IMG/VR virus record: IMGVR_UViG_3300005263_000012
Coordinates: 1-25,430 of that record
Length of the DNA: 25,430 bases
Reading direction: 5' to 3' (one strand)
Source of the DNA: a virus
Each line of letters opens with the position of its first letter. Position 1 is the first letter of the stretch. Made by a program: the position numbers and the translations under genes. Positions 2,127 to 23,107 of the stretch are shown piece by piece. The notes under the pieces are model-generated. The model made no database searches. It had not been told where the DNA came from and saw nothing but the letters and a program-made list of their open reading frames with translations.

Positions 2127-3161
2127 TTAAGACAGTGATATTGAACCATCGGCTGAACCAAGAGCCTCTTTAGGGATATCAGTGTTCCCTTCTATCGAAT
2201 CTCTTTCTCCGATAGATTGAACTATGTTGACATCTTTATTTGCTATGTTAAAAGCGGCATTGATATCAGCATGATCAACGTGTCCGCATGTCGGACACTT
2301 AAACTTTTTTCCATTCCTGTTGCCTATAAGTCCACACCTGCTACAGCTTTTGCTTGTATAACGTGGATCAATATAGACAACTCCAACCCCTTGTATTTTG
2401 GCTTTGTATTCTATAAACATTTGAAGTTGATAGAATGACCAACTATTCAAAGAGTATCTGAATGATCTTGCATGTTTGTTATTATTCCTTATTCCGGTTA
2501 AATCTTCAAGTTTAATTCCACTGTTATTCTGTACTGCAATTTCCACAATTTTTCTACTGATCTTATGGTTAAGATCTTTTACAATCCGACTTTCCCTGTC
2601 TTTTATTTGTTTTACCTTTCGGTATTTACCTTTCTTTTGTAGGGATTTCCTGATATTTTTATACTTTGTGTGGATATGCAATCCTTTCTTACCGAGTTTC
2701 CAGACTTTGCCGGTTTCAGGATTAGCAACCGTAGCTATATGCCCTGTCGTATTCCTGTCTACTCCGACATAGTTTGTAGGCTTCTGTACTTCGGTTTCAG
2801 GAATAGTTACAGAAACATAAGCAAACGTTTTCCCTAATTCTATTTGGTTAATCTTTTCAAATTCTGGAAATTGATATTCAAGAGCCAGTTTTACACATGG
2901 AATTTTGATTATGTGCTTATCAACATCTACTTTTATACCCTGATTAGGGACAGTTAATTTGATGTTCTTGACAGATTTAACCTTTTTATTCCTTGCATAT
3001 TTTCTCAAAATCTGATTAGATATCATGGATTTCAAGCCAATATGAGCAACATCTTTTGATGATAATGTCCTATATTTGATGCCAAACTCCGCTACCTTTC
3101 TTGCTTTTTGTAGTTCCTCTGAGAAATCTCTATCATGTTTAATTTTATAAGTTAGAATCAT
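2127..3161 (-). CDS. tnpB: TnpB RNA-guided nuclease (compact, 344 aa)
   Basis: RuvC motifs VGVDRN / IKLEDL / HADINAA, Zn ribbon CSRC...CPTC, and YTSKSC. Confidence 0.93.
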   Translation of the reverse strand: MILTYKIKHDRDFSEELQKARKVAEFGIKYRTLSSKDVAHIGLKSMISNQILRKYARNKKVKSVKNIKLTVPNQGIKVDVDKHIIKIPCVKLALEYQFPEFEKINQIELGKTFAYVSVTIPETEVQKPTNYVGVDRNTTGHIATVANPETGKVWKLGKKGLHIHTKYKNIRKSLQKKGKYRKVKQIKDRESRIVKDLNHKISRKIVEIAVQNNSGIKLEDLTGIRNNNKHARSFRYSLNSWSFYQLQMFIEYKAKIQGVGVVYIDPRYTSKSCSRCGLIGNRNGKKFKCPTCGHVDHADINAAFNIANKDVNIVQSIGERDSIEGNTDIPKEALGSADGSISLS

Positions 3162-20562: not shown

Positions 20563-21216
20563 TTATTCTTCCTCGTTTGCTTCTTGAAGTTCTTCCTGAA
20601 TCCACTCTAGTTCTTTTTTGTAGTCGCTGGAATCCATATTAAGGATCACAACATCACCGGACTCAATTGATTCAATTATTTTTTAAAGTGTTTTTTTGTC
20701 ATCCAGATCCGCGGTCAACAGGTCAATTCCATCATTTTCAAGATACTCTGATAGATGCTGCTTTCCTTCAAAAGCTCCGAGGACATCAAATGAATATAGA
20801 TAATCATGTGTTGGTGCTTCACGTAGCTTTTCAAAGTCTAGATTCCACAACAGTTCCTCGGATTCGGTGGTAAAATTGCCTTTCCAGTTTGAGCCGTCCC
20901 ATTCTGCCTCGAATCCTTCTCCGGCTTTTTGGATAATTGGCTTTATCTCATCGTCATAAAACTCTTTAAATCTGGTGAAGTCTGTGTCTTCTGGAAGGTT
21001 ATACCGGCTTGCTAGTCCATGCCATATCTTACTAGGGGTAGAATTTGTATCCATTACGGTTTCAATTTTAACTTCCTTGGATTCCCAATCGACGTATAGG
21101 CAAATTCTGCAAAGAGAGTGCCCGTTATTGTTCATTGGGTCGGCTTCCCAGAATTGGGTAGCGGTCCAGTCATCAACATTCTTGTTAATCAATCCAAATT
21201 CATTGTTCTCACTCAT
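20563..21216 (-). pseudogene. Highly acidic protein with an in-frame TAA at 20683-20685
   Basis: The 177-aa ORF continues in frame after the TAA for 39 codons (KIIESIESGDVVILNMDSSDYKKELEWIQEELQEANEEE) of the same acidic composition. Confidence 0.6.
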
Positions 21217-21472: not shown

Positions 21473-21508
21473 GTAATAATTGATTTTAAAATATATAAAA
21501 GTAATTAA

Positions 21509-21624
21509 ACTGGCAGGTGGAATCGAACCACCGTTACGCGCGAATCAACGAGGCCAACACATCTATACTCAATCTGTGATTCAGCGTCCTGAATCTTGTA
21601 TGAGGGTTAATGCTCGTCGCCAGC
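21509..21624 (-). ncRNA. tRNA-like RNA (acceptor stem + perfect T-arm, non-canonical interior)
   Basis: 5' GCTGGCG pairs with 3' TGCCAGT. T-arm is GGTGG-TTCGATT-CCACC. The 85-nt interior has the GATTCAG-GACG-CTGAATC hairpin and no assignable anticodon. Confidence 0.65.
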
Positions 21625-21647
21625 ATATAGAGATAGTGGATTAAAAT

Positions 21648-23020
21648 GTGAACTACCCCTAAGCTAAAGACTTAGGGGCTTCCTGGTTCATTCCTTGAAC
21701 TTTTGTTCACAAGTCCCCAGGCTCTTCCTCGCGTTCCGCAAGTGTTGAATAGGTTTCAAACACCTATTAGGTTTTGATCTATGAGAGCGAATTTCTTAAT
21801 GTTAATAGCGGCATTAATATCTCTATCTAACACGGTTTTACAGTCTGGGCAAGTCCATTCTCTGTCCTTTAATGTCAAATCAGAGTTATGATATCCACAG
21901 ACGTTACAAAGTTTAGAAGAAGGCTCAAACCTACCTATTCTTAGTATGGTTTTTCCTACCCAATCGGCTTTATATTCTAGTTTTGTTACAAAGCTACTCC
22001 AAGCAGAATCACTAATAGCCTGTGCAAGACAATGGTTTTTCTGCATACCTTTAACATTCAGAGTTTCCAGAGCTATTGCTTGGTTTTCGCTGATAAGTTT
22101 AGAAGAGAGTTTGTTCTGGAAATCAGTTCTCTGATTAGTTATTTTGTCGTGGAGTACAGCAAGTCTTTGTTTAGCTTTTGCCCTGTTTTTAGAACCTTTT
22201 TGTTTCTTCGAAACTCTTTTCTGTAATACTTTGAGTCTCTGAAGAGAATTTTTCAGATATTTAGGATTCTCTATTTTGTCACCTGTAGAGAGGACAGCAA
22301 AGTCTTTGATACCAACATCTATTCCTACAGTAGTAGTTTCTGAGAAAGACTGCTTTGCTGGAAGTTCTTTTCCGTCTTCAACAAGAATACTAATATAGTA
22401 ATGCCCTTTACATGTCCTTGAAACTGTAGCTGTTTTAAGCTCTCCATCAAATACTCTGTGAAGAACTGCTTTAATGGGTTCTATTTTAGGAAGCTTTACA
22501 GTGTTGTTTTCAAAGTCTACTACATAATGCTGTGGAATAGGAAAAGATTGTATAGGATTCTTTTTTGATTTGAACTTTGGAAATCCTGTTTTCTCTCTAA
22601 AGAATCTAGTGAAAGCAGATTCGACCTGTTTAGTCATTCCCTGTAATGATTGTGAATTTACTTCTCCTAACCATTCATTAGAAGCCTTCAAAACTGGAAT
22701 TAATTTGTTTAAGTCAAATCTCGAAATTGATTTTCCTGTTTGTTCGTATGTTTTAATTTTTTGATCAAGTGCCCAATTATAGACAAACCTACAGCTACCA
22801 ATGTGTTGATTCAATTTAACGGCTTGTTTTGTTGTAGGATAGAGTCTAAATTTGAACGCTTTCATCATACAAGGTATTATATGGTTTAACAGCATATATA
22901 GTTTTTGGTAAAATTGGAAATGTTAGTAAAGAATCTGCCGAATATTATATACGGAAGCAAGGTTAAGTTGACGCTTATATCCCGCGAAGCTGAAGACTTC
23001 GGGGTTTTACGCTTCGACCT
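21648..23020 (-). mobile_element. tnpB-only IS200/IS605-family (IS1341-type) element, inserted 3' of TTAT
   Basis: Left end TTAT|AGGTCGAAGCGT-AAAA-hairpin CCCCGAAG..CTTCGCGGG. Right end GAAG-CCCCTAAG..CTTAGGGG-TAGT-TCAC|. Guide/cleavage pairs AAAA/TTAT and GAAG/TCAC are consistent. Confidence 0.9.
21756..22895 (-). CDS. tnpB: TnpB RNA-guided nuclease
   Basis: KAFKFRLYPT N-terminal HTH, RuvC motifs VGIDVG / IALETL / DRDINAA, Zn ribbon CNVC...CPDC. The start is probably at MMKAF. Confidence 0.95.
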   Translation of the reverse strand: MLLNHIIPCMMKAFKFRLYPTTKQAVKLNQHIGSCRFVYNWALDQKIKTYEQTGKSISRFDLNKLIPVLKASNEWLGEVNSQSLQGMTKQVESAFTRFFREKTGFPKFKSKKNPIQSFPIPQHYVVDFENNTVKLPKIEPIKAVLHRVFDGELKTATVSRTCKGHYYISILVEDGKELPAKQSFSETTTVGIDVGIKDFAVLSTGDKIENPKYLKNSLQRLKVLQKRVSKKQKGSKNRAKAKQRLAVLHDKITNQRTDFQNKLSSKLISENQAIALETLNVKGMQKNHCLAQAISDSAWSSFVTKLEYKADWVGKTILRIGRFEPSSKLCNVCGYHNSDLTLKDREWTCPDCKTVLDRDINAAINIKKFALIDQNLIGV

Positions 23021-23024
23021 ATAA

Positions 23025-23076
23025 AAAAGTTAGTGAGGGATGTTAGGGCAGGAATTAAGAGCCTAACAGTGAGCTA
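23025..23076 (-). ncRNA. Candidate ~50-nt hairpin RNA
   Basis: Minus-strand TTTATATAA box at about 23094-23102, hairpin TGTTAGG...CCTAACA, then a T-tract. It could instead be the par operon terminator. Confidence 0.3.
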
Positions 23077-23107
23077 TATTTAATACACTAATTTTATATA
23101 AATATAT

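Follow-up and report, generated by a model that had tools for sequence, protein, structure and literature searches.

A candidate stand-alone tRNA-like RNA beside a TnpB insertion sequence in a viral genome

Can a virus encode an RNA that keeps the ends of a tRNA and none of its decoding parts? The question is raised by a 116-nt element on the minus strand of the window (the whole 25,430-nt stretch of DNA analysed here, which also encodes a disaggregatase-related protein and a FilR1-type regulator). The window belongs to a viral record of 101,744 bp with 37% GC, rated 100% complete by CheckV. The element (21509..21624, read from 21624 to 21509) consists of an acceptor/T-arm top half closed around 85 nt of other sequence. 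Its acceptor stem is formed by GCTGGCG (element positions 1-7; 21618..21624) and TGCCAGT (21509..21515), which make 7 bp including the wobbles G1-U72 and G7-U66. This stem directly abuts the T-arm GGTGG TTCGATT CCACC (21516..21532), recovered in a strict T-arm scan and fitting the motif GGTTCRANYCC, and the two are contiguous in a 12-bp stack with a canonical T loop, as in the top half of a tRNA. The original prediction, made from the sequence, had described a 7-bp acceptor stem with two G-U pairs stacked on a perfect T-arm, and this description holds on the minus strand.

The 85-nt interior (21533..21617) stands in place of the D arm, the anticodon arm and the variable region. Element position 8 is A, the element has no D loop, and a search of the interior for a 5-bp/7-nt anticodon arm found none. 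The 3' acceptor strand is followed by T (the discriminator) and TAATTACTTTTAT, i.e. the DNA continues as TTAATTAC (TTAATT) and CCA is not encoded. The lack of U8, of a D-loop GG, of a clean anticodon loop and of an encoded CCA, all of them remarked on before, is thus borne out. Furthermore, no ORF of at least 60 aa overlaps the element, and no C/D or H/ACA sRNA boxes were seen when the interior was searched by eye (an Rfam snoRNA match appeared only at E = 7).

The calculated pair probabilities are 0.91 for the acceptor stem and 0.98 for the T-arm, and the top-half fold is stable both with and without flanking sequence. The minimum-energy fold of the whole element is a four-way junction (-35.5 kcal/mol), compared with -33.2 kcal/mol for a rod. 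The interior pairings that had been proposed for such a rod are all present, namely ACGAG/CTCGT (8-12/73-77), CTCA/TGAG (21-24/54-57) and GATTCAG/CTGAATC (30-36/41-47), the last one forming a 7-bp hairpin with a GACG loop (21578-21595, minus strand). Note that a further 7-bp pairing, of UGAAUCA (42-48; window 21577-21583, minus strand) with UGAUUCG (78-84; window 21541-21547), competes with the 30-36/41-47 hairpin and may represent a second conformation of the element.

The element is not a tRNA. It was not called by ARAGORN with default settings (tRNA and tmRNA), and at a lowered threshold the program calls nonsense; it matches no Rfam family, neither at the gathering threshold nor at E ≤ 10; and RF00005, run against the whole genome at E ≤ 10, returned only tRNA-Gln and a weak match at 72183, without registering the element. 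The ARAGORN and Infernal/Rfam checks that the original prediction had named therefore yield no tRNA call for this locus, and a standard decoding tRNA can be rejected on these negative searches and on the absence of an anticodon arm.

The original prediction had also considered a highly diverged intron-containing tRNA, and archaeal tRNA genes indeed often bear introns. With introns allowed (-i), however, ARAGORN found only tRNA-Gln (71809-71881) and nothing in the element. None of the 1,442 variants from which a single segment had been removed gave a tRNA call. Removal of two segments gave tRNA calls in 13 of 92,700 variants, all of them poor, and 15 of the 25 shuffled-interior controls treated in the same way gave at least 13 calls. 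A bulge-helix-bulge scan of the element found only weak, G-U-rich matches, none of them convincing. As the deletions perform no better than those of shuffled interiors, no bulge-helix-bulge motif is credible and the RF00005 search is negative as well, we reject an intron-containing tRNA as far as the tools used allow; together with the suggestion that the element is a part of the neighbouring insertion sequence (see below), a decoding tRNA with one or more introns has next to no probability in our view.

Among tRNA-like RNAs of other kinds, the tRNA-like domain of tmRNA is distinguished by its G3-U70 alanine identity, a tag-peptide ORF and pseudoknots. Like this domain and like bacterial YrlA, the viral element replaces a whole tRNA by an acceptor/T-arm module whose strands are joined by a long unrelated RNA. 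Unlike the tmRNA domain, it lacks G3-U70 (the pair 3-70 is U-A, i.e. U3-A70), a tag ORF and an encoded CCA, matches no Rfam family (tmRNA included) and is not called as tmRNA by ARAGORN, and this candidate was rejected. Archaea are not known to use tmRNA.

The surroundings of the element include a TnpB-only insertion sequence (IS) of the IS200/IS605 family (21648..23020, minus strand; the right end is at 21648 or 21646), the ends of which are defined by the points where conservation with two other copies, L001 and L002, stops. Its tnpB ORF (21756-22895, minus strand; 379 aa) carries the Pfam domains OrfB_IS605, Cas12f1-like_TNB and HTH_OrfB_IS605. An omega-RNA scaffold, conserved in an alignment of the three IS copies from the 3' end of tnpB to ...GGGGTAGTTCAC(AT), and a 5' target motif (in the window as in L001, the left end comes directly after TTTAT, which in the window lies at 23021) complete the features typical of this family. 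The tRNA-like element is outside the IS, separated from its right end by 21-23 nt, and is located downstream of tnpB and the omega-RNA on the same strand. The description of the element in the original prediction is thus sound as to its anatomy and incomplete as to its context, as it missed this IS and the promoter that the IS splits (see below).

Its position just downstream of tnpB could suggest that the element belongs to the IS or to the omega-RNA. We rejected this possibility, which shares the very low probability given above, as similarity to L001 (88% amino acid identity) and L002 (70%) is lost at ...GTTCAC(AT), before the element, and the flanks beyond are unrelated. Moreover, no tRNA-like neighbour is found beside the other IS copies; the IS and the element therefore lie side by side by accident, the IS having inserted into a TATA box with the target TTTAT in it. 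The 23 nt of AT-rich DNA between the IS right end and G1 (21625..21647, minus strand) are IS-flanking DNA; they represent the proximal part of the split promoter and at the same time the expected guide segment of the TnpB omega-RNA.

Several further traces of such elements were noted. A second, distant TnpB-like gene (2127-3161, minus strand; 344 aa; Cas12f1-like TNB domain with E = 2.5e-25) is 26% identical to the TnpB encoded at 21756-22895. Outside the window, at G000:C1:97307-97352, the hairpin that ends the omega-RNA of the IS (window 21647-21692) recurs with 82.6% identity. No TnpB match is adjacent to this copy, which could be a right end on its own or a miniature derivative. The L001 copy (88% identical) has ~337 extra bases between its left end and tnpB (L001:1140-1478). 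A weak, partial HEARO match on the plus strand (21648-21710; 20 bits, E = 0.043) reflects the near-palindromic terminal hairpins of the omega-RNA read on the wrong strand and does not point to an IscB RNA.

If the IS is removed from the sequence, a promoter appears in front of the element. The rebuilt empty site consists of the BRE-like hexamer ACTAAC, the TATA box TTTTTTAT, the 23 nt ATTTTAATCCACTATCTCTATAT and then the acceptor strand GCTGGCG; the first two of these form the distal half of the split promoter (23021..23034, minus strand), which ends in the IS target TTTAT. The 8-bp TATA box is placed at -31 to -24 relative to G1; a BRE-like hexamer with a TATA box at this distance is the canonical geometry of archaeal promoters. 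A second promoter-like motif, ACTTTTATATATTTTAA, is situated just downstream of the element (21502-21486, minus strand) and is identical to the rebuilt promoter at 16 of 17 positions; its T-runs could also terminate the transcript of the element. Before the arrival of the IS the element thus looks like a monocistronic gene, the transcription of which would have started at G1 or within ~3 nt of it; termination would have taken place in the T-runs that lie 9-20 nt beyond the 3' acceptor strand.

In the present genome the IS has substituted GTAGTTCAC for the TATA box of the element. Because of this replacement, read-through from the tnpB/omega-RNA transcript would now be the only source of the RNA. 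Such a transcript would contain, in this order, the omega-RNA scaffold, the 21-23 nt flank (guide) and the tRNA-like element, and a cut by RNase P at G1 would at the same time leave the omega-RNA with a guide of 21-23 nt. In a lesser variant of the improbable role in trans that is discussed below, the element would now act as a natural tRNA-type cutting mark that fixes the guide length of the adjoining TnpB omega-RNA. The fact that an IS is tolerated in the promoter suggests that the RNA is dispensable or already silenced. On the other side of the IS, between ORF135 and the IS left end (window 23021-23107, minus strand), we noted a TATA-like TTTATATA, a hairpin of GTTAGGC with GCCCTAAC and a T6 run, which is also the TATA box of the tRNA-like gene; these features may belong to a small hairpin RNA or merely to the end of the ORF135 transcript.

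Does the resemblance to a tRNA exceed chance? Four strict T-arms are present in the genome, all on the minus strand, compared with 0.26 expected from 300 block shuffles. The composite of a T-arm and a 7-bp acceptor stem occurs twice (in the real tRNA-Gln and in the tRNA-like element), compared with 0.027 expected from block shuffles. Furthermore, the GC content of the element (50.9%; 45.9% for the interior alone) contrasts with 22-29% in the flanking non-coding DNA. Locally, 116-nt windows with a GC fraction of at least 0.5 are confined to 21508-21627, i.e. to the element itself, and only 0.65% of all 116-nt windows of the genome are as GC-rich. The edges of this GC island are sharp and coincide with both acceptor ends; since they do so and since the promoter geometry points to G1, we regard the ends of the element as real.

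The composition and the intactness of the top half also bear on the most serious alternative, a non-functional relic. In this case a captured or duplicated tRNA gene, or its 3' part, would have had its middle overwritten by recombination or insertion, the 5' acceptor strand would be a leftover or a chance complement, and the RNA would have no role. Indeed, for a given T-arm, chance alone provides an acceptor complement within 20-150 nt in ~10% of cases, and the two G-U pairs of the acceptor stem are exactly the number that chance pairing would yield according to our own calculation. The fold energy is unremarkable compared with shuffled sequences (z = -1.54), and controls with shuffled interiors retain the top half almost as well as the real element does. 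The position of the IS in the promoter, the failure to find a homologue and the absence of the element from the closest syntenic relatives (see below) are also in line with a relic. However, decay should affect every arm, yet all 31 of the 31 top-half positions are intact and the other 85 nt are unrecognisable; the GC island includes the interior and stops exactly at the acceptor ends; the restored promoter sets the start at G1; and other top-half mimics have been kept in the same genome. A relic is therefore a doubtful explanation, though one to be reckoned with, and the element would then be an ordinary scar left by the turnover of tRNA genes in the genome of a virus.

The other mimics are found at ~72 kb, where three strict T-arms lie beside the tRNA-Gln gene (71809-71881, with an A1-U72 pair) on the same strand as the element. 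The A1-U72 pair of this tRNA, like the disaggregatase-related protein and the FilR1-type regulator encoded in the window, agrees with a virus of Methanosarcina. One of them belongs to a 128-nt RNA (72303-72176) with an acceptor/T stack that closes 97 nt, i.e. with the same plan as the element; the interiors of the two RNAs show no similarity to each other. The ~72-kb mimics thus share strand and top-half-only design with the element and differ from it in forming an array beside a real tRNA, whereas the element stands alone at a separate locus, with no sequence similarity to them and no relatives found. The virus tends to carry top-half mimics, and their presence in the same genome raises the prior for the element being a gene rather than a scar.

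The acceptor/T top half of tRNAs is the substrate determinant of RNase P, tRNase Z and the CCA-adding enzyme. The interpretation that we prefer, and put forward tentatively, is that the element is a tRNA-like RNA of the t-element kind that stands alone and does not decode, with these three enzymes as its predicted maturation machinery. The carrier of its gene would be a tailed virus of methanogens, and the tRNA-end enzymes of the host would recognise the top half. RNase P would cut before G1 where a leader is present, tRNase Z would cut after the discriminator U, and the CCA-adding enzyme would then add CCA. The expected product is a stable RNA of ~116 nt plus CCA, non-decoding and with no evident aminoacylation identity, given U3-A70 in place of G3-U70. 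Because the host tRNA-end enzymes should recognise the top half, the acceptor/T module could help the 85-nt RNA that it encloses to mature and to remain stable, and could also mark adjoining RNA for cutting.

The t-elements to which we compare it are tRNA-like processing signals of plant mitochondria, for which GGTTCRANYCC has been used as the search motif (Forner et al. 2007, PMC1920247). Archaeal precedent comes from Haloferax: a tRNA-like element is present upstream of the 5S rRNA of Haloferax volcanii (Hoelzle et al. 2008 and 2012, as cited in PMC4326828), and where a guide RNA is flanked by t-elements, RNase P and tRNase Z process these in vivo (PMC4326828). Like them, the viral element has a T-arm fitting this motif (GGTTCGATTCC) in a fold with a 7-bp acceptor stem, no decoding function and no encoded CCA, and the same enzymes are expected to act on it. 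Known t-elements form part of longer transcripts, in which they set the ends of the RNAs next to them. The viral element, by contrast, apparently once had a promoter and a terminator of its own; an unrelated, structured RNA of 85 nt lies within it, it is borne by a virus, and its processing is a prediction.

The junction with the IS has an engineered parallel in the icrRNA of Haloferax volcanii, in which a guide RNA is followed by a tRNA-like element and RNase P sets the 3' end of the guide (PMC4326828). In the viral locus the TnpB omega-RNA scaffold, the 21-23 nt flank and the tRNA-like element follow one another in the same order on one strand. Unlike the icrRNA, this arrangement arose by IS insertion and is lacking from the other IS copies, and any use of it would be putative. 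The junction is a natural counterpart of the guide RNA and t-element design that works in Haloferax (PMC4326828), and it also illustrates how the TATA box of an archaeal promoter can become the insertion site of a TnpB element whose target motif is TTTAT.

The t-element interpretation is favoured by the rarity of the composite, the match to GGTTCRANYCC, the robust fold, the edges of the GC island, the rebuilt promoter, the lack of an overlapping ORF and the further T-arms in the genome; besides, the element is not a copy of the 3' half of a cellular tRNA, as judged from a 24-mer scan and from the lack of an integrase (see below). It is weakened by the ordinary fold energy, by the shuffled controls that keep the top half, by the ~10% chance of an acceptor complement with two G-U pairs and by the singleton status of the element, which is absent from the nearest ORF177-syntenic relatives (L016, L022). 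In addition, a cutting mark would be superfluous in a monocistronic gene, which leaves the gain for the virus unexplained.

One conceivable benefit is a role in trans as a decoy or sponge, in which the top half, once it carries CCA, would draw off proteins of the host or of defence systems that recognise the acceptor end or the elbow of tRNAs (end-trimming or end-modifying toxins, processing enzymes or modification enzymes). The own promoter and the terminator-like T-runs make the RNA itself look like the product, and several unrelated top-half mimics at two loci of the genome would fit this role. Against it stand the tolerated IS insertion and the lack both of conservation and of an identified partner protein, and we consider a decoy improbable. 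The same low probability applies to its generalisation, i.e. that viruses of methanogens produce non-decoding top-half RNAs from scattered loci, each transcribed by itself, and that these RNAs work in trans as decoys or sponges. Anticodon nucleases, which are among the targets suggested in the original prediction, are hard to argue for, because the element offers no anticodon loop. From the tRNA-mimic interpretation of the original prediction, a mimic of the top half only is thus supported; the intron-containing tRNA is rejected, and the anticodon-nuclease decoy finds no support.

Att sites located in tRNA genes usually comprise a T-arm and a 3' acceptor strand, and the element could accordingly be a site of the attP type, copied from the 3' half of a host tRNA gene and serving integration. 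Exact matching of a 24-mer (with Y at the two wobble sites) to 185,579 species representatives, a set that may not include the true host, found it in only 4 genomes, all of Bryobacterales, and in no archaeon. Furthermore, PF00589 (tyrosine integrase) is absent from the viral record despite its completeness, and the 5' complement, the GC-rich interior and the promoter geometry would all be left unexplained by an attP site. We regard this possibility as very improbable.

The collection of homologues proposed in the original prediction was carried out and gave none in viral contigs, phage records, the own genome or related records and loci. In viral contigs, an exact 23-mer of the element is absent, and a degenerate acceptor...T-arm...acceptor pattern has 7 matches, all of them unrelated high-GC RNAs. 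Blastn against phage records returned only T-arm matches, to tRNA-Ile of Felixounavirus-type phages. A covariance model of the element found only the element itself in its own genome, nothing in five related viral records and nothing credible at 16 further loci. The 3' half of the viral tRNA-Gln, used as bait for relatives, gave 0 matches, and the proteins flanking the element locus or the 72-kb array, used in the same way, led to no relatives. The downstream gene, ORF177, has homologues at 44-78% identity; the regions upstream of those compared (L016, 75% amino acid identity; L022; L009; others, with the best homologues P0002-P0007, at 75-78% identity on short ENA/Logan contigs, left out) contain no T-arm and do not align to the window. 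As no relatives were found, the element is probably either lineage-specific or young. ORF177 itself (20683-21216, minus strand), the homologues of which carry the precomputed family PF26929, ends ~40 residues before the acidic C-terminus that is conserved in 13 of 13 aligned homologues, and it may be truncated or frameshifted.

A full-text literature search for "tRNA-like" together with "archaeal virus" found no paper. Should the RNA be produced and matured in the predicted way, archaeal viruses would be shown to encode free-standing RNAs of tRNA shape that make use of the tRNA-end machinery of the host outside decoding, and the element would be a second, unrelated locus of tRNA mimics besides the ~72-kb array. 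RNAs of 126-127 nt with a perfect acceptor stem and T-arm around long interiors were also noted in two unrelated phage contigs of higher GC (46-62%; L029:2196-2321, minus strand; L030:2407-2533, plus strand); they may be intron-containing or otherwise expanded tRNA-like genes.
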